Source of the DNA: Acidobacteriota bacterium
GTDB lineage: Bacteria > Acidobacteriota > UBA6911
DNA: 64,000 nucleotides
Reading direction: 5' to 3'
NCBI GenBank assembly: GCA_963664705.1
Contig: OY761556.1
Coordinates: forward strand, 4,288,001-4,352,000
Shown here: positions 22,829-58,934 of the stretch, piece by piece
Layout: every line of letters begins with the position of its first letter
Position numbering within the stretch: the first letter of the stretch is position 1
The notes under the pieces: model-generated
The model's database searches: none
Told to the model about the DNA's origin: nothing
The model's input: only the letters and a program-made list of their open reading frames with translations
Position numbers and translations under genes: made by a program

Positions 22829-24283
22829 CTACTTTGAGGAGCCTGACTTCAACAGTTCAATCTGCCCCTTGCGCGCCAGGTCAATGGCCTCCCCAAGAAT
22901 GCGGCTTGCCTCCTGGGGCGCATGGAATCCCATTGAATTTTCAGCATTGACGAAATCAACGCGCCATTGAGCACTGCGCTGCATCTCCCGCACAGCCTGC
23001 AGCTGCGCATCCGTTTTGCCGGATGCCTTTGCCGCTGAAATCGCTTGGATCAGATCGACGGCAGCATCTTCCGCACGGAGCAAAAGATTGTGATTCCGTT
23101 CCTGGATGATCTCCACCCTCGATTTGATTTCCTCTTCCGAGAAACGATGGCAGACCTGGCAGGAGTTGGAAATATTCAGTAGCGGGCTGCGCACGGAATG
23201 ATTACTGATTTTAATTGCCCCTTCCCTCGTATAGGGCATGTGACAATCGGCGCAAGCCACACCGCTGCGGGCATGAATGCCCTGGCTCCACATTTCGAAT
23301 TCCGGATGCTGAGCTTTCAGAACCTCCGCACCGCTTTCCGCATGCTTCCAGTCATAAAAGCGGTTGCCGTCACTGAATTTGTAGCTGTTGTAGTAGGCCT
23401 CAATTTCCTCGACCTTCAATCCATTGTTCCACGGATAAAAGAGCGTGGCCTTGGGTCCGCAGTAATATTCCACATGGCATTGCGCGCACACCAGCGATCG
23501 CATTTCCTGGCGCGAGGCCAGGGTATTGGGATCATACGGCTCCTCGCGGCTGCTCGTCCGCCATTTCTCGATGGAAGGCAGATGCGCCACCGAGGCTGTT
23601 GATGTCGCCAGGGAGCGTATTCCCAGAATAAATCCGGGGCGCGTTACACGCAGTTGCATCGATTTGGGATCGTGGCAGTCAATGCAGGCCACCGGATGCT
23701 CCACAAGCTTGGTTGCTTCGGAGTACGGCATCGTGCCGATTTTTTCGAAGCCCTTCAGCAATTGCATATAGCCATTCGCACTGACCACCGGATCGTCGAG
23801 ATTGCCGGGAGCGCCATTCTCCAGGCCAACCTTGCGGTAAACTCCAACGTTCGAGGCATGGCACTGCAGACAGGCTCCAGTCTGTTTGAACGGAAGCTGT
23901 ACGCGCTTGGTCTCGCGCTGATCGGACAACATATACGCGTGACCGCGCCGCGCCCGGAAATCCACCGAGAAGGCATATCCCGCAAAAATCGTCTTCAGGC
24001 GGGGATCCTGGACCAATTTATCCGTTGCCAGCGATTCAGATCCACCACCGCCGTATTTTGTACCGGTGCGCTCTGCCGTGCGCTTGTAGCCATCATACTG
24101 GCGCGGAAAATTCTTTCCCCATTCGGCAGGATCTACGGTCCGCTCTGTTAGGTCGACAATTTTGAATACAACCTGCTTGGATTCTTCCTTGCGCGTGGCG
24201 ATCTGCTCTCGCATCCAGAGAACAGCAGCAGTCGCGATCGCCACCAATGCGATAATGATAATCGGAGAGTATTTTTTGCTCAT
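22829..24283 (-). CDS. nrfA: Cytochrome c552 ammonia-forming nitrite reductase (CxxCH-type first haem)
   Basis: Five haem motifs (CLQCH, CIDCH, CAQCH, CADCH, CQVCH); RGHAY, HVEYY, KAQHPEFE and AENSMGFHAP. Confidence 0.93.
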   Translation of the reverse strand: MSKKYSPIIIIALVAIATAAVLWMREQIATRKEESKQVVFKIVDLTERTVDPAEWGKNFPRQYDGYKRTAERTGTKYGGGGSESLATDKLVQDPRLKTIFAGYAFSVDFRARRGHAYMLSDQRETKRVQLPFKQTGACLQCHASNVGVYRKVGLENGAPGNLDDPVVSANGYMQLLKGFEKIGTMPYSEATKLVEHPVACIDCHDPKSMQLRVTRPGFILGIRSLATSTASVAHLPSIEKWRTSSREEPYDPNTLASRQEMRSLVCAQCHVEYYCGPKATLFYPWNNGLKVEEIEAYYNSYKFSDGNRFYDWKHAESGAEVLKAQHPEFEMWSQGIHARSGVACADCHMPYTREGAIKISNHSVRSPLLNISNSCQVCHRFSEEEIKSRVEIIQERNHNLLLRAEDAAVDLIQAISAAKASGKTDAQLQAVREMQRSAQWRVDFVNAENSMGFHAPQEASRILGEAIDLARKGQIELLKSGSSK

Positions 24284-24297
24284 ATCCGGTATAACCC

Positions 24298-24741
24298 TCA
24301 GCGGTTGGGCCCATGCCCGACACTGTCATGGCAGCGGACACAGTAAAGTTCTTCGTCTTTAATTGTCCTGTGCGCGGTTATCTCCCGAACAAACTGCTTG
24401 TGACAATACAGGCAGTTCGCATTCAATACCGCGGCATTCGCGGTCTTGATGCGAATGGGCTCGTCAAAATTCATCAATGTGAAGGCAACAGAGTGATGAT
24501 ATCCGTTGCTGGCCTTGGTCGTCCATTTGCCGATGAAATCGTGCGGCATGTGACAGTCGCCACAGACAGCAAAGGAGTGATGGCTGGCTTTCTGCCAGCC
24601 GTCATATTCGCTGCGCATGATGTGGCAATTGACGCAAGCCTCTGGATTGTTCGACAGATAGGATGCCCCGCGGGCGTAGAAAAACGTATAGCCGCCTGCA
24701 CCCAGGAAAACTCCAATTATTGCACTCAGCAGCAATTTCAT
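24298..24741 (-). CDS. nrfH: Cytochrome c nitrite reductase small subunit (NapC/NirT family)
   Basis: N-terminal TM helix, [16 protein letters not shown], four CxxCH motifs; directly upstream of nrfA. Confidence 0.93.
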
Positions 24742-24848
24742 ATCATGAAAAACAGTTAATTTTTGACTGGAGCAGAGAGTATCACAGATTTGCGAAATCT
24801 TCGATACCATGGACCGCACGAATGCCCTGCGTCAATGCCTCCGGCTTC

Positions 24849-25799
24849 CTAGACGGCAGCCAGGAGCGCTCGTTTGACGAGCGTCTTGGCGATCTGGACT
24901 TTGTACTTGGTGGCACTCAACGGCTTGGCGTCTTCAACCGCAGCCGCGCCGGCCGCTTCGGCATTGGCTTCATTGATAGCCTTGCCTGCGATCGCCGCTT
25001 CGGCCTTGACCGCGCGATACGGTTTCGGGGCAACGGCATTCAGAGCAATCCTCGGAGCTCCTCCCCCCACCATCACGGCACAGTTGACGATCGGGAAATC
25101 GATCGACTTGCGGATGGCGAATTTGAGAAAAGCGCTCTTGGCACCGGCCGGAGGGGTCGGGACCTGGATTTCGGTGATGAATTCGCCGGCAGCGAGAACG
25201 GTGTTGCCGGGGAATTTGACATCAAAGAAATTCTCGGCATTGATCTTGCGCGTGTTGGTCACCACGGAGGCATTCAAAGCAATGAGAGCCGGGGCGACGT
25301 CGCTGGGATGAACGGCGATGCACTTGTTGACGTTGCCGAAGATGGAGTGATAGCGGTTGTCGCCCATCATAGCAAAGCAGGTCGTGCCACCCTTGCGGAC
25401 GCAAGGGAACCGGTTTTCCGGCTTCCGGAAGTACCAGCAGCGGTGGAGCTGAGCGATGTTGCCGCCGATGGTGCCCATGTCGCGGACATGGGGCGTGGCG
25501 ACGCGCAGAGCTGCCTGAGCCAGAGCGGTGTATTTCGCATTGATGTCCTTGTTGGCGGTGATATCCGCAAGGCGTGTGGTGGCACCGATTTTCAGGATAC
25601 CGGCTTCTTCCTTGATGTAATCGAGACCCGGGGTAACGGTCTTGATGTTAATCACGGCTTCGGGGTACGTGGGAAGGATGTTGTCCTTGAGCCGGCCGAT
25701 GAGATCGGTGCCCCCGGCAATGATTTCTGTTTTTCCGCCGGCAAGGGCAGTTTTGACCTCGGCCAGGGTTTTTGCATTCGTATGATTGAAACCTTTCAT
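24849..25799 (-). CDS. Xanthine dehydrogenase family FAD-binding subunit (PaoB/HcrB-like, with 4Fe-4S insert), copy 1
   Basis: AGGTDL, TIGGNIAQ, RCWYFR...C...C...C insert, HPSD and AIRKSIDFPIVNCA. Confidence 0.92.
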   Translation of the reverse strand: MKGFNHTNAKTLAEVKTALAGGKTEIIAGGTDLIGRLKDNILPTYPEAVINIKTVTPGLDYIKEEAGILKIGATTRLADITANKDINAKYTALAQAALRVATPHVRDMGTIGGNIAQLHRCWYFRKPENRFPCVRKGGTTCFAMMGDNRYHSIFGNVNKCIAVHPSDVAPALIALNASVVTNTRKINAENFFDVKFPGNTVLAAGEFITEIQVPTPPAGAKSAFLKFAIRKSIDFPIVNCAVMVGGGAPRIALNAVAPKPYRAVKAEAAIAGKAINEANAEAAGAAAVEDAKPLSATKYKVQIAKTLVKRALLAAV

Positions 25800-25811
25800 G
25801 AGTGTCTCCTC

Positions 25812-26537
25812 CTATGCCTTGCCCATAGCCTGAGCGGCTTCCATAATTGCGGTAGGATGCCGCGGGTAGGTTCCGCAGCAGCAGATATTGCCGGCGAGAG
25901 CCTGTTTGCAGTCATTCTCGGTCGGGTTGGGATTCTTCTGCAGCAGAGCCTTGGCCGAAACGACGAAGCCCGGAGTGCAGTAGCCGCACTGCATCGCGTC
26001 CCACTTGCAGTAGGACTGGATGAGGGAGCGCCATTTGGGATCGGCAGCAATGCCTTCAACGGTCTCGATGGATTTGCCCTCGCATTCGACCGCCAGGGTC
26101 GAGCAGGAGAGGACGGTTCTGCCGTCAATGTTCACGGAGCAGGAACCGCATACGCCGCGGTCGCACATCTGCTTGGCTCCGGTAAGACCGAGTTTGAACT
26201 GCAGGGTGCGCTGAAGAGTCCAATGGGGCTCGATGAGAACTTCGTAGTCCTTGCCATTGACTTTGAGCTTGGTGGTAATGGGAAGGACCTGTCCGGGATG
26301 CGCCTGGGCGAAATGGGCCTTGAGGCCGCCGTAGGTGTTGAAATCCTTGGCGCAGATCGGGCACCTGAAATTGGTGATGGTCGAAGGGGCCTCTGCAGCA
26401 GCAGCGGCAGCCGCTTCGGTAGACAGGGTCAGACCTGCTCCCAGAGAACTGCCGGCAACCACAGCACCGGCGCTTTTAAGGAAGTTTCTTCTTCCTATCC
26501 CAACTCGTTCACTTCCACGGTCGTCTTGATCGGTCAT
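25812..26537 (-). CDS. Xanthine dehydrogenase family [2Fe-2S] subunit with Tat signal and C2H2 zinc finger, copy 1
   Basis: GRRNFLK Tat motif; FRCPICAKDFNTYGGLKAHFAQAH; CDRGVCGSC, QCGYCTPG and GNICCCG. Confidence 0.92.
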   Translation of the reverse strand: MTDQDDRGSERVGIGRRNFLKSAGAVVAGSSLGAGLTLSTEAAAAAAAEAPSTITNFRCPICAKDFNTYGGLKAHFAQAHPGQVLPITTKLKVNGKDYEVLIEPHWTLQRTLQFKLGLTGAKQMCDRGVCGSCSVNIDGRTVLSCSTLAVECEGKSIETVEGIAADPKWRSLIQSYCKWDAMQCGYCTPGFVVSAKALLQKNPNPTENDCKQALAGNICCCGTYPRHPTAIMEAAQAMGKA

Positions 26538-43725: not shown

Positions 43726-44547
43726 TTGAAGATAATTGGTGAAAAGATCAACGGAACCCGCAAGCGCGTGCAACAGGCTATTATGGAACGCGATGCGAAA
43801 TTCATCCAGGATTTGGCTTTGAGCCAGGCAGCAGCCGGCGCTGACTGGCTGGATGCCAATGCAGGAACCGCCCCGCAACGCGAACCGGAAGATCTCATTT
43901 GGCTGGTTGAAAATATTCAGGCCGTGACCGAAACTCCGATCTGTCTCGACAGCGCCAATCCCGCGGCATTGGAAACAGCCATCAAGGTAGTAAAGAAAAC
44001 CCCGATGATCAACTCGATCAGCGCTGAACCGCACCGCCTGACTGGCGTGCTGCCGCTTGTTGCTCAATACAAGACTCCCGCGATTGCGCTGGCCATGGAT
44101 GAAAAAGGAATTCCAAAAACAAGGGAAGATCGCCTGAACGTCATTCGCAAGCTTCTCGGCGAAACCCGCAAAGTTGGAATTCCGGATGACTCCCTATATT
44201 TCGATCCCCTGGCGATGACCATTGCAACCGGGCAGGATAACGGCATGGTCTTCTTCGATACCATCCGTTCTATTCGCAGCGAATTTCCCGAAGTTCACAT
44301 TACCTGTGGCCTCAGCAATATCTCTTTCGGAATGCCGGCTCGCGCGTACATCAATCGCATCTTCCTGACTCTTGCCATGCAGGCTGGGCTCGACAGTGCG
44401 ATTTGCGATCCCAATGAACACGAGATCAAAACCACAATGCTGGCCACTGAGCTTTTGTTGAACCAGGACAGACATTGTCTCAAGTATACCAAAGCATTTC
44501 GCGCTGGAGTTTTTAACAGGCCACCATCCGGGGCCGGCAAGGCATAA
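43726..44547 (+). CDS. Methyltetrahydrofolate:corrinoid methyltransferase (pterin-binding, AcsE/MT2-like)
   Basis: TTG start after AAGGAG; IIGEKINGTRK, GADWLDANAG, LDSAN, INSIS and GLSNISFGMP. Confidence 0.92.
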   Translation: MKIIGEKINGTRKRVQQAIMERDAKFIQDLALSQAAAGADWLDANAGTAPQREPEDLIWLVENIQAVTETPICLDSANPAALETAIKVVKKTPMINSISAEPHRLTGVLPLVAQYKTPAIALAMDEKGIPKTREDRLNVIRKLLGETRKVGIPDDSLYFDPLAMTIATGQDNGMVFFDTIRSIRSEFPEVHITCGLSNISFGMPARAYINRIFLTLAMQAGLDSAICDPNEHEIKTTMLATELLLNQDRHCLKYTKAFRAGVFNRPPSGAGKA

Positions 44548-44606
44548 TCCGTTGGCAAGGAACTTTTGAATAATTTCTACTAAAGGAAGCAAAAAAGGAG
44601 AGCTCT

Positions 44607-45245
44607 ATGTCGAAAGAATTAATCGATGCCGTCGTTGATATGCGTGAAGAAGACGCTGTAAAGATTGCTGAAACCCTGCTGAATTCCGGGGCCGATCCGC
44701 TCGGTCTTCTGGACGACTGCCGTGAAGCGCTTGGCATTATCGGTGGCAAGTTCGCCGCTGGTGAATGCTTTGTCCCTGAACTGATTCTGGCCGGCGAAAT
44801 GCTGCGACAGGTTGGCGCGCTGGTAAAGCCCAGGCTTGCCACTTCAGGCGCGGGCGCCCAGAAAAAGATCGGCAAGATCGTCTTCGGAACGGTGGAAGGC
44901 GACATCCATGACATCGCAAAAGATATCGTGGTTTTCATGCTGGACATCAACGGTTTCGACGTAATGGATCTGGGCGTCGATGTGCCGGTTGCGAGATTTG
45001 TTGAGGCCGTAAAGGAATTCAAGCCTCAGGTCGTCGGTCTCAGCGGCTTCTTGACACTCGCTTATGACCCGATGAAAAACACCGTACAGGCCCTAAAGGA
45101 TGCGGGACTTCGGGACAGCGTCAAGATCATGATCGGCGGCGGGCAGATGGATGACCAGGTTGCCGCGTATGCAAAGGCAGATGCCTACGGCAAGGACGCC
45201 ATGGCAGCCGTTACCCTGTCCAAGGGATGGGTAGGGGCGAAATAA
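44607..45245 (+). CDS. Corrinoid (cobalamin-binding) methyl-carrier protein
   Basis: B12 cap domain (F.PELILAG), GTVEGDIHDIAK, DLGVDV, LSGFLT and MIGGG. Confidence 0.93.
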   Translation: MSKELIDAVVDMREEDAVKIAETLLNSGADPLGLLDDCREALGIIGGKFAAGECFVPELILAGEMLRQVGALVKPRLATSGAGAQKKIGKIVFGTVEGDIHDIAKDIVVFMLDINGFDVMDLGVDVPVARFVEAVKEFKPQVVGLSGFLTLAYDPMKNTVQALKDAGLRDSVKIMIGGGQMDDQVAAYAKADAYGKDAMAAVTLSKGWVGAK

Positions 45246-45247
45246 CC

Positions 45248-46591
45248 ATGCCAAAACCGGATAATTTCGATAGTTTATCTCCCGATCAGAAGCGTCAAGC
45301 GCGGCTGGATGCGTGGGTAAACCACGAGAACCTCGAATTTAAGAATCCGGAAGCTGAAAAAGCGTACCGGGAACGCGCTCAGATGTTTGTTGACGTTTTC
45401 CTGCTGAAAAAGCCCAAACGGGTGCCCGTGACTATTTCCACGGGCTTCTTCCCATTCCTGCACGCCGGGTTCACCTGCAAAGATGCAATGTACGATTATG
45501 CAAAACTCGGCAAGGCAATGAAGCAATTTCATACTGAGTTCATGCCTGACGCTACCGCGTCTGCGGGGCTTTACGCACCTGGCACCATTCTGGAAATCCT
45601 GGACTATAAGCTCTATCACTGGCCGGGCCACGGAGTACCGGAAAACACGTCTTACCAGTGCGCTGAAGCGGAATTCATGAAGGCGGATGAGTATGGAGCG
45701 TATCTGAACGACCCCAGCGATTATTTTATCCGCACTTACCTGCCTCGTGTCATGGGAGCGTTGGAACCATGGAAGGAGCTTCCGCCCTTCACGAACCATC
45801 TGGAGCTCCCGTTCATTCCGTGGGGAATGCTGCCCTTTGGTCTGCCTCATATTCAGGAAACTTTAAAAAAACTGATGAAAGCCGGCGAAGTCGCGCTGGA
45901 ATGGGCTGGGAAGGTCGCAGAAATTGACAGCGACAACATCACCAGCCTGGGGCTGCCGAAATATCAGGGCGGTTTCTCAAAGGCACCATTTGACGTCATC
46001 GGCGATACCATGCGTGGCACGCGCGCGATGATGCTCGACACCTTCCGCAAAAAGAAGGAGATCCTGGATGCCTGTGAGCGGAATATCCCTTTCATGACAA
46101 AAATGCCGTATGGAGCGTATAACTGGGGTGCGGCTCCAACAGTATTTTTCCCGCTGCATAAAGGCGCAGACGGCTTCATGTCGCCGAAGAGCTTCAAGGA
46201 ACTGTACTGGCCGTCCTTTAAGCAGGTCATGCTCAATCTGATTAACGATGGTATGATCCCATTCCTGTTTGTCGAGGGAAGCTATAACCAGCGGTTGGAT
46301 CTGATTACCGATCCCGATATCCCGGCTGGCAGCACCATCTGGTATTTCGACAAGACGAATATGAAGGAAGTCAAAAAGCATCTCCAGGGATGGGCGTGCT
46401 TCGCGGGCAACTTCCCTTCATCTCTCTTGAAAACCGGGACTCCCGAGCAGGTCAAAGAACACTGCACGCAACTGTTGAATGATCTTGCCGGAGACGGCGG
46501 ATACTATATGGTTAACGGCGCGGTGCTCGATGAGGCGAATGCGGATAATCTGCATACGTATATCGATACCGTCAAATCCTACAAATACTAG
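45248..46591 (+). CDS. Uroporphyrinogen decarboxylase-fold substrate:corrinoid methyltransferase (MT1-like)
   Basis: PKRVPV, APFDVIGDTMRG, FPLHKG, FMSPKSFKELYWP, CFAGN and GTPEQV; operon context. Confidence 0.82.
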   Translation: MPKPDNFDSLSPDQKRQARLDAWVNHENLEFKNPEAEKAYRERAQMFVDVFLLKKPKRVPVTISTGFFPFLHAGFTCKDAMYDYAKLGKAMKQFHTEFMPDATASAGLYAPGTILEILDYKLYHWPGHGVPENTSYQCAEAEFMKADEYGAYLNDPSDYFIRTYLPRVMGALEPWKELPPFTNHLELPFIPWGMLPFGLPHIQETLKKLMKAGEVALEWAGKVAEIDSDNITSLGLPKYQGGFSKAPFDVIGDTMRGTRAMMLDTFRKKKEILDACERNIPFMTKMPYGAYNWGAAPTVFFPLHKGADGFMSPKSFKELYWPSFKQVMLNLINDGMIPFLFVEGSYNQRLDLITDPDIPAGSTIWYFDKTNMKEVKKHLQGWACFAGNFPSSLLKTGTPEQVKEHCTQLLNDLAGDGGYYMVNGAVLDEANADNLHTYIDTVKSYKY

Positions 46592-46613
46592 TCGAGTTGT
46601 TTCGATGGCATCG

Positions 46614-46647
46614 GCCCGGGGATTGGTTCTCATCCCCGGGCTTTTTT
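46614..46647 (+). terminator. Rho-independent terminator
   Basis: GCCCGGGGAT-TGGTTCTC-ATCCCCGGGC-TTTTTT. Confidence 0.88.
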
Positions 46648-46864
46648 ATTTTTGGGAAGTCCGTGGCTAAAAGGAGGCTATCGATCTGCCACGGGCTTTA
46701 TGAATTTTGAGGTAGCCACAATGCTCCCGCCCTTCACTTTCAACGGTTTTTTCTTTTGAAACAGGACAGCTTTGGATATGATCGGGGCCAGTTTCCAATC
46801 CAGCAGAGGACGAGTATGCGCAGGCAGTCCGCATTGTGGACCGGTGCGAAAAGGAATGGTGAGG

Positions 46865-47974
46865 ATGATGGACTCCCTAAAAATCCGCATTAATGGCAAG
46901 GAGGTTGATGGCAACCGGGGAATGACGGTTTTGCAGGCCGCAGAAAAGGCGGGAATCAGCATCCCCACACTTTGCTATCACAAGGATTTTATCCCTACAG
47001 GCTCCTGCCGCATCTGCGTCGTCGAAGTGGAAGGGTCTGGCAGGTTGATCGGATCCTGCCATACGCCCATTGCAGAAGGAATGATCATTCAAACGCATTC
47101 GCCGAAGGTCCTCTCCGCACGCAAAGCAACGATGGAACTGCTGCTGGCCGGACATACCGGGCCCTGCGTCGCGGATGTTCGAGCAGCCCAATGCGATCTG
47201 CATAGGATTGCCTCGGACCTCGAAGTCGCGCCGCCACGGTTCAGAGTAAAGCGCCCGCGCTTCTATACGATTGAAGATGTCAGCCCTTACGTGCACAGGG
47301 ACTTATCCAAGTGCATCCTGTGCTCCCGGTGTATCAGCGCCTGCAATGAACTCGCAGGCAAACGGGTCTTCGGGACAGGTTATCGCGGATTCGAGACCAA
47401 GGTCATTGTCGATAACGATGTTGCTATCGATAAAAACTTTTGCAGGGACTGCTACCTCTGCGTTGAATACTGCCCCACCAGCGCCCTGATCAAGGCCGGG
47501 CAACCGGAAGACAAAACGCGCGGCAAAAAAATGACTTCTGCATCGCCTAAGCCGCAAAAGCGGGATCGGCGATGCGGAAACCTTCTTCCAATCCTAAAAA
47601 AAGCGCAGGATCGTGCCCATTACCTGTCCCCGAAATTCATGACAAACACCGCTGATTCGCTGAATCTATCGGTAAGTGATGTATACGGAGTGTCGACTTT
47701 CTATTCTTACCTGTCCACACGACCGCTCGGGACCAATGTAATCCGAGTTTGCAAAAGCCTGCCCTGCTACCTGAAGGGATCAGAGATGATCCTGAAGAGC
47801 CTTGAGAATTCGCTTGGAATCAAACCCGGAGAAACGACGCGAGATAAGAGATTTTCCCTGGAATTGGCCAACTGCATCGGGGCGTGCGATCGCGCTCCCG
47901 CAATGCTGATCAACGAAGATGTTCACGGGAACCTGACACCAGGAAAGATATCGAAACTACTCAAGCAATACTAA
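46865..47974 (+). CDS. Fe-S fusion protein: NuoG/HydA-type N-terminal Fe-S module plus NuoE/HydC-type [2Fe-2S] domain
   Basis: IPTLC, GSCRICVVE, H-x3-C-x7-C, CILCSRC, CRDCYLCVEYCP; then VSTFYS, VCKSLPC and CIGACDRAP. Confidence 0.88.
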   Translation: MMDSLKIRINGKEVDGNRGMTVLQAAEKAGISIPTLCYHKDFIPTGSCRICVVEVEGSGRLIGSCHTPIAEGMIIQTHSPKVLSARKATMELLLAGHTGPCVADVRAAQCDLHRIASDLEVAPPRFRVKRPRFYTIEDVSPYVHRDLSKCILCSRCISACNELAGKRVFGTGYRGFETKVIVDNDVAIDKNFCRDCYLCVEYCPTSALIKAGQPEDKTRGKKMTSASPKPQKRDRRCGNLLPILKKAQDRAHYLSPKFMTNTADSLNLSVSDVYGVSTFYSYLSTRPLGTNVIRVCKSLPCYLKGSEMILKSLENSLGIKPGETTRDKRFSLELANCIGACDRAPAMLINEDVHGNLTPGKISKLLKQY

Positions 47975-48021
47975 TCTGCCGCCGGGAGTCCGGACCTCCG
48001 GGCACCTGAAGGAGAACGGCT

Positions 48022-49239
48022 GTGCAAAAACGGATCGTTTTGAAGAACTGCGGACTTGTCGATCCCAAGGATATCCGGTCCTACATCAAGCAGGATGGCT
48101 TCATGGCGCTTGAAAAAGCTCAGAAGCAGATGACTCCGGACCAGGTCATCGAGGAAGTCATCAAATCCGGGCTGTTGGGCCGTGGAGGAGCGGGCTTCTC
48201 CTGCGGCCTGAAGTGGAAGCTGGCCAAAGAGCAGTCTGAGAAGGAAAAATTCCTCATCTGCAATGCGGATGAGGGGGAAGTAGGAACTTTCAAAGACAGG
48301 TATATCCTGGAAAACGATCCTTTCACCCTGATCGAAGCTCTTGCCATTGCGGGCTGGGCGATCGGCGCATCCAAAGCCTTCATCTACCTTCGAGCGGAAT
48401 ATCGATTCCTGTCCGGACTCGTCCTCAACGCCATCAAACAATCGCAAAAAAAGGGATTTTTAAAGCACCTCGAGATTGAGCTGCGCGAAGGCGCAGGCGC
48501 GTATATGTGCGGAGAGGAATCGGGGCTCATGAATTCGATTGAGGGATTCAGAGGCGAAGCCCGCTACAAGCCCCCCTTCCCTCCGGCAAAGGGCCTCTGG
48601 GGCAAACCGACTGTCATCAATAATGTGGAAACTTTGATGAATATTCCTCAGATCGTCCTGAACGGCAGTGAATGGTTCAGGGGATTCGGGACGGAGAAGA
48701 GCAAAGGGACCAAGGTCTTTTCAGTGAGCGGCGATGTGGCCAGGCCCGGCGTTTATGAACTGGAACTTGGAAGCAGGCTGTCGGAACTGGTACTTGAGCT
48801 GGCATCCGCCGCAGAGACAAAGATGATACAGGTTGGAGGCGCCTGCGGACGAATTCTACCGGCCGAACTCATAGACACGCCACTTGCCTATGAAAGCATC
48901 CTGGGAGCCGGCGCCGTTACCGTCTTTGACAAGACGCGCGACATTATCGAAATGATGTGCCGGAACACCGAGTTCCTGGGCGAAGAATCGTGCGGTCGTT
49001 GCGCACCCTGCCGTGATGGTTCGGAGGCTATGCTGGATATATTGCATCGGCTGACCAATGGGGAAGGCGCAAGCGAGGACATCGGCGCGCTGGAAGATCT
49101 GTCAAGAGTGATGTCTCTCTCGGCTTTGTGCGGGTTGGGACAAACCGCATCGGTCCCGGTCATGGATAGCCTGAAGTATTTCAGGAAGGAATATGAAAGC
49201 CGGATCGAGCAGTCACGATTTTTGAGGACCCTTCGATAG
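48022..49239 (+). CDS. NADH-binding flavoprotein, NuoF/HydB-like (short form)
   Basis: GRGGAGF, NADEGEVGTFKDR, GAYMCGEE, NNVET, ESCGRCAPCR and LCGLG. Confidence 0.92.
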   Translation: MQKRIVLKNCGLVDPKDIRSYIKQDGFMALEKAQKQMTPDQVIEEVIKSGLLGRGGAGFSCGLKWKLAKEQSEKEKFLICNADEGEVGTFKDRYILENDPFTLIEALAIAGWAIGASKAFIYLRAEYRFLSGLVLNAIKQSQKKGFLKHLEIELREGAGAYMCGEESGLMNSIEGFRGEARYKPPFPPAKGLWGKPTVINNVETLMNIPQIVLNGSEWFRGFGTEKSKGTKVFSVSGDVARPGVYELELGSRLSELVLELASAAETKMIQVGGACGRILPAELIDTPLAYESILGAGAVTVFDKTRDIIEMMCRNTEFLGEESCGRCAPCRDGSEAMLDILHRLTNGEGASEDIGALEDLSRVMSLSALCGLGQTASVPVMDSLKYFRKEYESRIEQSRFLRTLR

Positions 49240-49293
49240 TCGGTAGCGGGCAGTGGCCACTGCCGACCGGGAAAAACCAGGAGTGAAACCGGG

Positions 49294-49905
49294 ATGCCTA
49301 AGAAGAAAACAGATACGACAGCTGCACTGACGAAGTACTCGTGCCCGTACTGCCGGGACACCTTTGATACTTTCGAATCGATTAAGGCACACTTCCTGGC
49401 CGGACATCCGCAAGGGATATTGCCCGAACCGGAAGGAACGATTCATATCACGGTCAACGGGCAGCAATACAAGCTCCAGGTTGAATCCGACTGGACGCTT
49501 CATTACCTGATCCACGACAAACTCGGACTGACGGGAACCAAACTCATGTGCGACCGTGGAGCTTGCGGATCCTGCACGGTAATCATGAACGGAAGACCCA
49601 TCCTCTCATGCATGACCCTGGCGATCGAATGCAATGGCCAGCGGATTGAAACCGTCGAGGGAATCGCCGCGGCAAACCATCCACTGGTTGAGGAATATGT
49701 CAAACACCACTGCATGCAATGCGGCTATTGCACTCCCGGGTTTGTTGTAACGGCAAAAGCACTCCTGGACAGGAATCTGAACCCGACGGAACAGGACATC
49801 CGCGAAGCGCTGGGAGGGAATCTCTGCCGTTGCGGCACCTATCCACAGCATCCTAAGGCCATTCTTCAGGCAGCCAGGCTGCTGCGGGAAGCCGCGACCA
49901 GATAG
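49294..49905 (+). CDS. Xanthine dehydrogenase family [2Fe-2S] subunit with N-terminal C2H2 zinc finger, copy 2 (no Tat signal)
   Basis: YSCPYCRDTFDTFESIKAHFLAGH; CDRGACGSC, QCGYCTPG and GNLCRCG. Confidence 0.92.
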   Translation: MPKKKTDTTAALTKYSCPYCRDTFDTFESIKAHFLAGHPQGILPEPEGTIHITVNGQQYKLQVESDWTLHYLIHDKLGLTGTKLMCDRGACGSCTVIMNGRPILSCMTLAIECNGQRIETVEGIAAANHPLVEEYVKHHCMQCGYCTPGFVVTAKALLDRNLNPTEQDIREALGGNLCRCGTYPQHPKAILQAARLLREAATR

Positions 49906-49917
49906 TCGGAGGACATC

Positions 49918-50901
49918 ATGAGGAAATTCACGCATATTGAAGCTCGAACAATCGACGAAGCGGCTTCGGCTTTGCGGAGATACGGAAATCGAGCAAGCGT
50001 TATCGCAGGTGGAACGGACATTCTGGGAAAAATGAAGGATGAAATCCTGCCCCGGTATCCCGAGGCTCTCATCAACATCAAATCAATTCCCGGCCTCGAT
50101 TTTTTCAGGGAAGAAGCGGGCGTGCTTCGAATCGGCGCACTGGCAAAACTCGAAGACATCGGGAAAGAACCTTTGATTCGTACAAAATACACCGCCCTTG
50201 CCCTGGCCGCAGCCAGAACCGCATCGCCGCATCTGCGCGAGATGGGAACCCTGGGAGGCAATCTGTGCCAGGATATTCGCTGCTGGTATTACCGCAATGC
50301 AAACAACCGGTTCCCCTGCCTTCGGAAAGGTGGAGGACGATGCTACGCCATTGATGGCGACAATCGGTACCATTCAATTATGGGCGGCAGTGTCGAGGGA
50401 GGTTGTTACGCGGTGCATCCCAGTGATACCGCCCCGGCCCTGATCGCCCTGAACGCCGGCGTCATGACTACAAAAAGGATGATCAAGCTGGAGGATCTTT
50501 TCCAGGTCGATGTGGCGAAAACCACAATTTTGGACCCGGATGAGATGATCACGGAAATTCACGTACCGGAACCATCGGCGGAATCCAGAAGCGCTTTTCT
50601 CAAATTCGCCATCAGAAAGGCTATCGATTTTCCGATCGTAAATTGCGCGGCAATGATCAGCACAGCCGCCGGCAAGATCACGTCCGCACGCATCTGCCTG
50701 AATGCCATCGCAGTGAAACCGTACCGTGCAGTAAAAGCGGAGGAAGCGATCCTGAAAAAAACCATTGATGAAGGGATTGCGGAAGAGGCGGGAAAAGCCG
50801 CTATGGCCGATGCAAAACCGATGGAACGCAATGGCTACATGGTTCAAATTGCTCGAGTCCTGATCAAGAGAGCAATCCTGGCCTGCCGTGAGATGAATTG
50901 A
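49918..50901 (+). CDS. Xanthine dehydrogenase family FAD-binding subunit, copy 2
   Basis: AGGTDI, TLGGNLCQ, RCWYYR Fe-S insert, HPSD and AIRKAIDFPIVNCA. Confidence 0.92.
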   Translation: MRKFTHIEARTIDEAASALRRYGNRASVIAGGTDILGKMKDEILPRYPEALINIKSIPGLDFFREEAGVLRIGALAKLEDIGKEPLIRTKYTALALAAARTASPHLREMGTLGGNLCQDIRCWYYRNANNRFPCLRKGGGRCYAIDGDNRYHSIMGGSVEGGCYAVHPSDTAPALIALNAGVMTTKRMIKLEDLFQVDVAKTTILDPDEMITEIHVPEPSAESRSAFLKFAIRKAIDFPIVNCAAMISTAAGKITSARICLNAIAVKPYRAVKAEEAILKKTIDEGIAEEAGKAAMADAKPMERNGYMVQIARVLIKRAILACREMN

Positions 50902-55999: not shown

Positions 56000-57091
56000 T
56001 TACGATTGCTCATTGACGATTGGCGATTCGGCGGCCAGAAGCACGCGGACAATTTCCTGTAACTGCGTGGCGTCAAAGCCCACCTCCAGGAAACGGATAC
56101 GCGAATCCGGCATAAGCCCCGCCCAGGGTTCTGTCAGAATACCCATGCTTCCGATGCGCGGGGCAATGCGATCGTCTGCCCTAACCAGCAATTCCAGAGT
56201 CCTGGTCTTCTCCATTTCCCGGGTGTTGATGCACCATAGAATAAGGTCAGGCCGGCAAAATCGCGTCACATCCGCAATCATCGCAATTTGCTGAGGATCA
56301 TCCGCCAGATAAACCAATGTCGGACCGTTTCCGAGCAACGATAGAATTTCGGAATCGAGCGGAAGCCACTCTCTCGCCTGGCTGGGATTCAAGCCTTTAT
56401 ACAACCCATCGGCAAATTCAGACCGAATGCCGACAAAGCGGTTGATCTTTGCCGATTGGATAATGAAATCGGGAGCGGCCAGAATGGTGTTGCGCGGCTG
56501 GGTGAAATAAAAAGCGGCAGATTCCTGAGGGATGGGGACGTCATCCCACGGAGCATAGGCTGCGGACTTGGCCCGCTCTCCCTGCTTCAACGTCCTTGCA
56601 TCCACTCGCAGAATCCGGTCCGGACTCAACAGCTTTACGAGGGATAGGACTACCCATTTTTCATACCCGCCTTGAAACAAGTTGGGCCAGACCGATGCAA
56701 TCTTCGCGGCACCGGCCTGCTCAAATCCGTCGATTGTTTCTTTTCCCTTCAGCAGGTCGAACAGCGGGTCATACAACTCTCGGATCATGCTATCCGAAAC
56801 ATTCCGCAGGAATCTCTGGATACGGCTGGCTTCCGGAGACTCTTCCCAAGATATGCAGCCGAACAGACTCTGCTCTGCCTCGGCATAATGCTGTCGCAGC
56901 TCGTTCGCCCGGTTGAGCAAATCCGGGAACTTGTGCTCTATGAAAGTGGCTCTTGCCGCATTAAACCGAAGATAAAACTCCGTGCGCACATCCTCAGGGA
57001 TGCTTGTTACCGATTCCTGAATTTCAATCTCGGAATTGTCCCGAATGAAACTCAACAGATTTTCATATGCCTGACCAAAATTGTCCGACAT
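56000..57091 (-). CDS. Hypothetical protein (weak PD-(D/E)xK-like motifs)
   Basis: 363 aa ORF in tandem with the U32 gene; YEKWVVLSL, PDFII and RPDLIL. Confidence 0.7.
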   Translation of the reverse strand: MSDNFGQAYENLLSFIRDNSEIEIQESVTSIPEDVRTEFYLRFNAARATFIEHKFPDLLNRANELRQHYAEAEQSLFGCISWEESPEASRIQRFLRNVSDSMIRELYDPLFDLLKGKETIDGFEQAGAAKIASVWPNLFQGGYEKWVVLSLVKLLSPDRILRVDARTLKQGERAKSAAYAPWDDVPIPQESAAFYFTQPRNTILAAPDFIIQSAKINRFVGIRSEFADGLYKGLNPSQAREWLPLDSEILSLLGNGPTLVYLADDPQQIAMIADVTRFCRPDLILWCINTREMEKTRTLELLVRADDRIAPRIGSMGILTEPWAGLMPDSRIRFLEVGFDATQLQEIVRVLLAAESPIVNEQS

Positions 57092-58254: not shown

Positions 58255-58934
58255 TCAGGCGCGCGGCTTCAGATTTTTAGCAGCTTCCATCACGGCCAGC
58301 GGATGTCGCTGATAGGTGCCACACCGGCAGAGATTTCCGCCAAGAGCATCTCGAACGTCCGCTTCCGTCGGGTGACTGTTTTTATCCAGAAGCGCTTTGG
58401 CCGTACAGACAAAACCGGGAGTGCAGTACCCGCACTGAAATGCGTTATTGTCTATATACGCCTGAATGATCGGGTGCTTTGCTTTGGCAATTCCTTCGGC
58501 GGTCTCGATAACGGCACCATTACACTCGCAGGCCAACGTCATGCAGGACAGAATCGGTCTTCCATTCATAATCACCGTACAGGAACCGCAGGCTCCCTGC
58601 CCACCACACCAGTCTTTGGGGGAGGTATAGCCAATCTGGTCACGAATCACCTGGCGCAGACTCCAATGCGGTTCTACCGCATACCGGTATTTCCACCATT
58701 TACCGTCAGTTCGATGGTGGTCATGTCTGCAGTGATCTTGACTGGAGCGGCACCTGCCGGTTTTTCAGCGGGAACACTCTTCTTAGTCTGGGCAGTTGCA
58801 AGCTCGGTCACCGCAATGGAACCCAGGGTGGGAGCACCGACCACCAGTCCGGCATCCTTCAGGAAATCGCGGCGGGATATGTGCAATCCTTCCTTGCTTT
58901 CCTGTTCTGCATTCTTGTCTTTTTGGTCTGGCAT
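58255..58934 (-). pseudogene. Tat-signal [2Fe-2S] subunit, copy 3, split by a single-base frameshift near 58690
   Basis: N-part has SRRDFLK...ELTVNGG; the shifted frame continues KYRYAVEPHWSLRQVIRD...CGQGACGSC-like motif, QCGYCTPG and GNLCRCG. Confidence 0.8.

Follow-up and report, generated by a model that had tools for sequence, protein, structure and literature searches.

The locus described here raises the question of what a classical Cys2His2 zinc finger does in an iron-sulfur subunit that is predicted to leave the cytoplasm. Such fingers are regarded as eukaryotic-type nucleic-acid binders, and to our knowledge they are rare in bacteria. The window, by which we mean the whole stretch of 64,000 nucleotides analysed (Acidobacteriota bacterium, contig OY761556.1, positions 4,288,001 to 4,352,000), carries at 25812–26537 on the minus strand a 241-residue open reading frame, P0003, for a Tat-signal [2Fe-2S] small (S) subunit of the CoxS/PaoA type. 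An earlier note on this DNA had claimed an F-x-C-x2-C-x3-F-x5-L-x2-H-x4-H finger between the Tat signal with its Ala-rich linker and the ferredoxin part. We find it somewhat probable that this finger is a zinc-stabilised mini-domain at the end of an export tether, exchangeable in cells of the Dehalococcoidia type, and that in the lineage of the window it has become a fixed ferredoxin cap which outlasts export.

Indeed, the minus-strand translation of 26298–26369 is exactly FRCPICAKDFNTYGGLKAHFAQAH, residues 57–80 of the reading frame, and translation, Pfam, alignment and structural model all place the C-x2-C-x12-H-x4-H finger there. With C59, C62, H75 and H80 as ligands, F57, F66 and L72 as hydrophobic core, and Y69 and F76 as additional aromatics, the segment follows the classical pattern F/Y-x-C-x2-4-C-x3-F-x5-L-x2-H-x3-5-H, core included. 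The reading frame and the Pfam layout also confirm the order of the parts: twin-arginine signal and Ala-rich stretch, finger, Fer2, Fer2_2. The HMM scan that the earlier note had proposed did return matches, all of them under the gathering cut-offs: zf-C2H2_4 aligns to residues 57–80 with E 4.7e-5 and 24.2 bits (cut-off 27), and zf-C2H2 gives 16.2 bits (cut-off 25.2). At E ≤ 0.01, 53 of 72 relatives match zf-C2H2_4. Because a strict classical-finger pattern occurs only five times in the 8.07 million residues of the six-frame reading frames of the whole genome of the window (G000), four of these being the P0003 gene and its near-identical copies, we regard the motif as more than chance. A scan for promoters and terminators gave nothing exceeding chance.

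The signal region (residues 1–50, 26388–26537, minus strand) has the twin-arginine motif GRRNFLK at residues 15–21, with the arginine pair at 26487–26492, an Ala-rich c-region and no lipobox; Pfam TAT_signal matches with E 4e-4, under its cut-off. Together with the hydrophobic stretch, the cleavage motif and the translocase found in the genome (G000 encodes two TatC and also two XdhC genes), this predicts export from sequence. Cleavage would fall within residues 44–50. The finger begins past the Ala-x-Ala sites (residues 42–50) and is also retained in homologues without any signal, so that its removal together with the signal peptide, which the earlier note had held against its own reading, is not what we see. 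Behind the finger, a linker of fixed length with the invariant P86 (26274–26297, minus strand; alignment) leads from H80 to the first ferredoxin strand, and the Fer2 and Fer2_2 domains follow at 25845–26279 (minus strand; Pfam and alignment). These two domains with their two sets of four Cys make P0003 a small subunit of the xanthine oxidase family. Its second-cluster motif reads GNICCCGT, the usual family form being CRC.

Homologues keep the finger strictly. In a full-length alignment of the best 120 of 5562 homologues, C59, H75, H80 and P86 are invariant (120/120), the RR pair is always present, and position 62 takes only two states, Cys (76 sequences) and Asp (44). Since the codons for Cys and Asp lie two bases apart and no intermediate residue occurs, position 62 appears to be under selection for a metal ligand. 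The Cys, both His and the Pro are likewise invariant in 72 sequences from several phyla; the loss of the Cys and His positions in homologues, which would have spoken against a genuine finger, was thus not found. Judged by this ligand conservation, the finger likely binds one metal ion, zinc, which supports the earlier option of an extra metal site. A survey of the architecture across taxa, also proposed before, found the finger ahead of Fer2 and Fer2_2 in several phyla: 75 of the 79 GTDB loci listed, a sample from at least that many, carry it, and the carriers belong to Acidobacteriota, Desulfobacterota-type deltaproteobacteria, Bacillota, Coriobacteriia, Chloroflexota and Spirochaetota. Of the four loci without it, L011 is frameshifted, L032 lies at the edge of its contig, and L070 and L071 have genuinely lost the finger. 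The architecture is rare: across 300 other genomes of the phylum of the window, a stop-free match over the finger was seen in G280 alone, among 150 matches listed (417 more lying beyond the listing), and only 9 of the best 150 representatives of 50% clusters have it. One further homologue, P0357, joins a signal, finger and first strands of the window type to a different ferredoxin C-terminal part, and is either a recombinant or an assembly chimera.

More importantly, the finger is not tied to export. Of 376 distinct fingers in our pool, 123 belong to proteins without a signal, and a paralogue inside the window, P0124 (49294–49905, plus strand; finger at 49336–49407), which lies behind NuoG-N/NuoE-like and NuoF-like genes, likewise has no Tat signal. 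A third paralogous S subunit (58255–58934, minus strand) has the Tat signal and no finger, so that the window itself holds both controls. The reading frame of the latter shifts near 58700, by a sequencing error or because it is a pseudogene. P0124 stands in a plus-strand series at 43774–50901 that runs from pterin-binding methyltransferase, corrinoid-type and URO-D-like genes through a NuoG-N/NuoE-like fusion and a NuoF-like gene to this signal-less S subunit and an FAD (M) subunit gene, without a catalytic (L) gene. In the signal-less Bacillota-type loci L033–L069, a conserved Ala-rich, helix-like stretch stands ahead of the finger and corresponds to the end of the former signal region.

Structure prediction gives the finger a place in the protein. 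The full-length model shows a beta-beta-alpha finger (pLDDT 81–90) with strands near 57–58 and 65–66 and a helix at 69–79; over this model and that of the mature chain, these elements have a pLDDT of 81–97. With the mature chain modelled at a mean pLDDT of 93.7, finger and linker at 95–97 and a pTM of 0.87, we read the finger as firmly placed against the ferredoxin; the prediction, taken solely from these two scores, is that it packs against the [2Fe-2S] domain of its own chain, on the face formed by strand 2 and helix 1. The finger-less L070 and L071 are altered at 12 conserved positions, and 5 of these lie within residues 101–110, at the end of strand 2 and the start of helix 1; the two sequences are, however, relatives on one long branch, and W106 is found in finger-less paralogues as well. 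The spacing from the last His to the first strand is constant in 120 of 120 sequences of the Tat clade, 71 of 72 of the signal-less clade and 30 of 32 of the Bacillota type; in 54 lipoproteins it is mostly 11–16 residues and variable in sequence. The fixed linker and the predicted packing on its own ferredoxin would explain why the finger is kept where export has been lost.

Compared with known systems, the finger is a known domain in an unexpected setting, on an uncharacterised bacterial molybdenum-type enzyme. It resembles the classical TFIIIA/Krueppel-type finger (PF00096/PF13894) in its pattern, its predicted beta-beta-alpha fold and its hits to ZBTB17, ZNF524 and the SSV1-type B-129. It differs in that it scores under the Pfam cut-offs, is single or rarely double, lacks base-reading residues, has an aromatic at +1 and Cys-to-Asp variants, and is fused to Fe-S redox subunits that are often exported. 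Foldseek and a wide structural search matched the ferredoxin part only, with family alignments starting at model residue 30 or later, and from the Atlas came nothing but generic C2H2 clusters (0.80), at most a lead. The host subunit, in turn, is like that of PaoABC (PDB 5G5G/5G5H), in which, according to the available text of PMC3958847 and PMC4273604, a Tat-signal S subunit that carries two [2Fe-2S] clusters escorts FAD and Moco subunits without signals. The ferredoxin fold (Z 20–22) and a Cys-rich insert in the FAD subunit are shared with PaoABC and with 4-hydroxybenzoyl-CoA reductase (1RM6/1SB3), whereas the solved members have no finger, and here the L subunit has His for the catalytic Glu and the S and M genes of the P0003 locus stand apart from any L gene. 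P0003 is not a PaoA equivalog, as NCBIfam PaoA gives 113.8 bits against a cut-off of 322.

The finger also occurs well beyond this enzyme family. A finger-only profile gave 103 hits, mostly [2Fe-2S] subunits (several named Dehalococcoidales), together with eukaryotic multi-finger proteins. Seven of 401 Chloroflexota genomes match it; G301, G312 and G427 have Fe-S fusions, and the remaining four genomes have unrelated small or other finger proteins. In the 1.5 Mb of G312, where 19 of 33 candidates were scored, there are 13 finger matches, every one of them led by a Tat lipoprotein signal with a Thr-rich linker: nine [2Fe-2S] subunits and four 4Fe-4S dicluster proteins, each of the latter directly upstream of an AFOR-family gene. 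We then have a metagenome scan with the leader, covering the best 80 of 167 confirmed loci (79 readable, and a small number of duplicate contigs among them), a sample biased by its ranking against a finger-bearing query, in which the finger sits on 45 of 50 [2Fe-2S], 5 of 20 Fer4 and none of 4 UGSC-family proteins. The same best 80 of 167 loci include a DMSO-reductase-family (Molybdopterin-oxidoreductase) catalytic subunit with a finger (L166), a truncated protein with a finger (L183) and three more that are too short to class. We had considered the finger to be a mark of xanthine-oxidase small subunits alone, an idea that falls with the Fer4/AOR-family and DMSO-reductase-family carriers. Since the same finger occurs on Fer4 subunits upstream of AFOR genes and on L166, it should fold without a fixed cargo. 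Two proteins, P0212 and P0349, carry a tandem pair of fingers. As regards gene organisation, G312 (L121–L133) holds many operons of Tat-lipoprotein xanthine-oxidase-family and AOR-family enzymes with near-identical leaders; most adjoin apparent two-component regulators, and some have a small membrane protein.

Gains and losses of the finger are directly visible. In the G312 operons L130 (with finger) and L131 (without), the ferredoxin part is identical and the L and M subunits are 91% and 96% identical, and in quick trees finger-bearing and finger-less ferredoxin domains interleave. The same trees, with a midpoint root, nest the clade of the window among Dehalococcoidia-type lipoproteins, which makes a direction from lipoprotein tether to fixed cap likely, although a midpoint root on quick trees does not prove it. 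In our preferred reading, the finger would have originated as the last bead of a Tat-lipoprotein tether (signal, Thr-rich linker, finger, Fe-S domain) on exported pterin enzymes of Dehalococcoidia-type anaerobes, where it travels with the leader between cargo proteins and can double or drop out. In the lineage of the window the linker to the ferredoxin would then have become fixed, with the finger packing on its own [2Fe-2S] domain and serving there as a stabilising cap or spacer. Metal would be taken up in the cytoplasm and the finger would pass through the membrane already folded, the FAD and catalytic subunits hitchhiking; export of such a folded S-M-L trimer would follow by analogy with PaoABC, as described in the available parts of PMC4273604 and PMC3958847.

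A partner bound in common would account just as well for the strict conservation of the finger and its occurrence on unrelated cargo. In this reading, the main rival, the finger may be a docking handle, its helix face, with the hydrophobics at +1 and +8, binding the same partner throughout: an electron acceptor in the membrane, for example, a factor for maturation, one of the other two subunits (FAD or catalytic), or a second finger. We regard this as unlikely, if well worth keeping in mind. The hydrophobic +1 and +8 are retained in all groups, and the finger recurs on cargo of three unrelated folds, each time on the Fe-S-bearing subunit, and is absent from all four UGSC-family proteins with the same leader noted above. 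In its boldest form, which we believe a shade less probable again, the handle would be a universal plug: in anaerobes, fingers on Fe-S subunits that carry the Tat signal, in all three pterin-enzyme families (xanthine oxidase, AOR and DMSO reductase), would dock dozens of exported oxidoreductases on a single electron acceptor in the membrane, or a single maturation factor, common to them all, and thiol-free Asp ligands would have evolved for life outside the cytoplasm. If true, this would explain how many exported enzymes are wired to one membrane chain; a purely structural cap would have a modest impact.

The genome of the window argues against a handle that selects among partners. The M gene (316 residues, no signal) directly follows P0003 at 24849–25799 on the minus strand, with no L gene at this locus. 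Its product has four invariant Cys (121, 133, 141 and 160) that likely bind a [4Fe-4S] cluster. G000 contains four near-identical S+M cassettes (93% in protein, 95–99% in DNA) at window 24849–26537 and at G000:C1 67009–68648, 3089407–3091048 and 5998591–6002771, two with a nearby L gene and two without, and the finger is nearly the same in three of the four copies. FAD and Moco partners, as expected for the xanthine oxidase family, are present: M is adjacent, and L stands in operons with near-identical copies at other places in G000. The genome has nine closely related L genes, seven of them orphans. The four cassettes, two of them lacking a catalytic gene, and the orphan L genes likely form a mix-and-match system in which a single electron-transfer module serves many catalytic subunits. 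Near-identical fingers facing nine catalytic paralogues cannot choose among them, and L130 and L131, which differ by the finger, presumably both work; the partner selection suggested in the earlier note is weakened accordingly. A conserved N-terminal extension of the L subunits was considered as a finger contact and rejected, as it is retained in the finger-less L070 and L071. Immediately downstream of the FAD gene, also on the minus strand, stand cytochrome c genes of the NrfH/NrfA type (22829–24819), a neighbourhood that the other cassette copies lack.

As a concrete partner, family U, of 347 or about 350 residues (e.g. window 56000–57091 and L080:3260–4300, both minus strand), was attractive. 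It neighbours 17 of 79 loci, each from a Tat-bearing lineage, comes after most G312 operons, and of the 401 Chloroflexota genomes is found in just two, G312 and G427, both of which belong to the three that have finger-Fe/S fusions. However, it also follows finger-less operons (L131 and window 56000–57091); in the phylum of the window it occurs in 4 of 301 genomes, all of one genus, including genomes without a finger-bearing match among the matches listed; and no hit appeared in the flanks examined around signal-less finger loci. Its role as a dedicated finger partner is thereby weakened. Family U has no Pfam or PDB sequence hit, and the Atlas gives a weak PD-(D/E)xK lead.

The ligands themselves point to a further possibility, namely that the finger is an extra metal centre, for example for Fe(II) rather than zinc, serving as metal store, redox sensor or electron exit outside the membrane. 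The drift from Cys2His2 through Cys-Asp-His2 to Asp2His2 is nearly confined to exported proteins: the 253 fingers with a Tat signal comprise 153 Cys-Cys, 97 Cys-Asp and 3 Asp-Asp cases, the 123 without a signal 122 Cys-Cys and 1 Cys-Asp. These counts (100/253 against 1/123) come from related, non-independent sequences and from a pool selected by a pattern requiring Cys or Asp, and so give a ratio, not exclusivity. A first impression that Asp at the second ligand is exclusive to Tat proteins (47/154 against 0/105) was broken by P0199, which has Asp and no signal. On a quick tree (a subset of 259 of 273), Cys and Asp exchanged at least 12 times, and four small supported clades are mixed. The named finger-bearing hosts belong to lineages of anaerobes, which would suit such a centre. 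Even so, we consider it quite improbable. Spacing and core are those of a structural zinc finger, and the Asp bias outside the cytoplasm may reflect the avoidance of disulfides. In the bacterial Ros/MucR fingers the second Cys is often Asp as well, and the equivalent variant Ros87-C27D (Cys-Asp-His2) binds Zn at 2.7 nM and still favours zinc over Co and Cd, as stated in the available portion of PMC12948726. Ros itself is a larger beta-beta-beta-alpha-alpha DNA-binding domain, unlike the classical 12-residue spacing found here. The Ros/MucR Pfam model gave no hit in P0003 or its 72 relatives, which places them outside that family.

More doubtful still is the folding checkpoint put forward in the earlier note, in which the finger would hold the signal peptide until cofactors and partners are in place for Tat export. 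Such a role would suit a finger that, in signal-bearing subunits, invariably follows the signal region and precedes the first Fe-S domain, and the accessible text of PMC4273604 has PaoA export requiring its partners. Against it, the finger is under strong constraint in the signal-less clade B (pattern in 72 of 74 hits, Tat motif in none of the 74) and is present in Bacillota-type proteins, of which some, such as L030 and L040, have visibly decayed signals. Tat paralogues in G000 and G312 do without it, and of the solved family members, PaoA included, none aligns over the finger. As whole signal-less lineages keep the finger and exported paralogues lack it, the idea is unsupported. That the finger binds nucleic acid and gives the subunit a second, regulatory role is hardly credible, as the earlier note had held, for although the solved structures closest in sequence are DNA-binding fingers of eukaryotes, there is a single finger in place of a tandem array, no TGEKP-type linker and no set of base contacts at −1, +2, +3 and +6 (helix positions −1, +1, +2, +3 and +6 being T/S, F/Y/L, A/G/E, A/E/D and S/A/N), Arg occurs at −1, +3 and +6 in 1, 0 and 8 of 376 distinct fingers, the mean net charge ranges by group from +0.8 to −3.8, and most carriers have export signals.

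We found no description of a finger on an Fe-S subunit in the part of the literature covered, which takes in few subscription journals, and the word zinc is absent from the available text of a recent paper on the xanthine oxidase family (10.1101/2025.01.17.632430). Here a classical finger belongs to exported redox enzymes of uncultured anaerobes and is mobile among them, and its natural ligand series, which tracks export, offers a test case for finger chemistry outside the cytoplasm. With 13 finger genes in the 1.5 Mb of G312, the finger may also serve as a marker for an unstudied enzyme radiation, and the natural pairs with and without it can be used for experiments.

The rebuilt active site of the catalytic subunits may be a more surprising feature than the finger. 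In the L subunits paired with P0003-type S subunits (e.g. L080:850–3198, minus strand, and L081; 61 close relatives), GG[KR]YC replaces GGGFG and an SGQHCP-like motif replaces RGFG. The Glu of the C-terminal G-x-G-E motif is the catalytic residue of xanthine-oxidase-family large subunits; its column holds His in 59 of the 61, the other two being cut short, so that this L subfamily lacks the hallmark of the hydroxylases. Together with the second-cluster motif of the S subunits in this clade, which is CCC, CIC or CSC in place of CRC, this suggests a different chemistry or cofactor binding. Many Bacillota relatives (e.g. L033:9051–11396 and L070:8232–10589) have an FAD subunit of about 780 residues with an inserted Fer4_20/Pyr_redox_2 NAD(P)H module.
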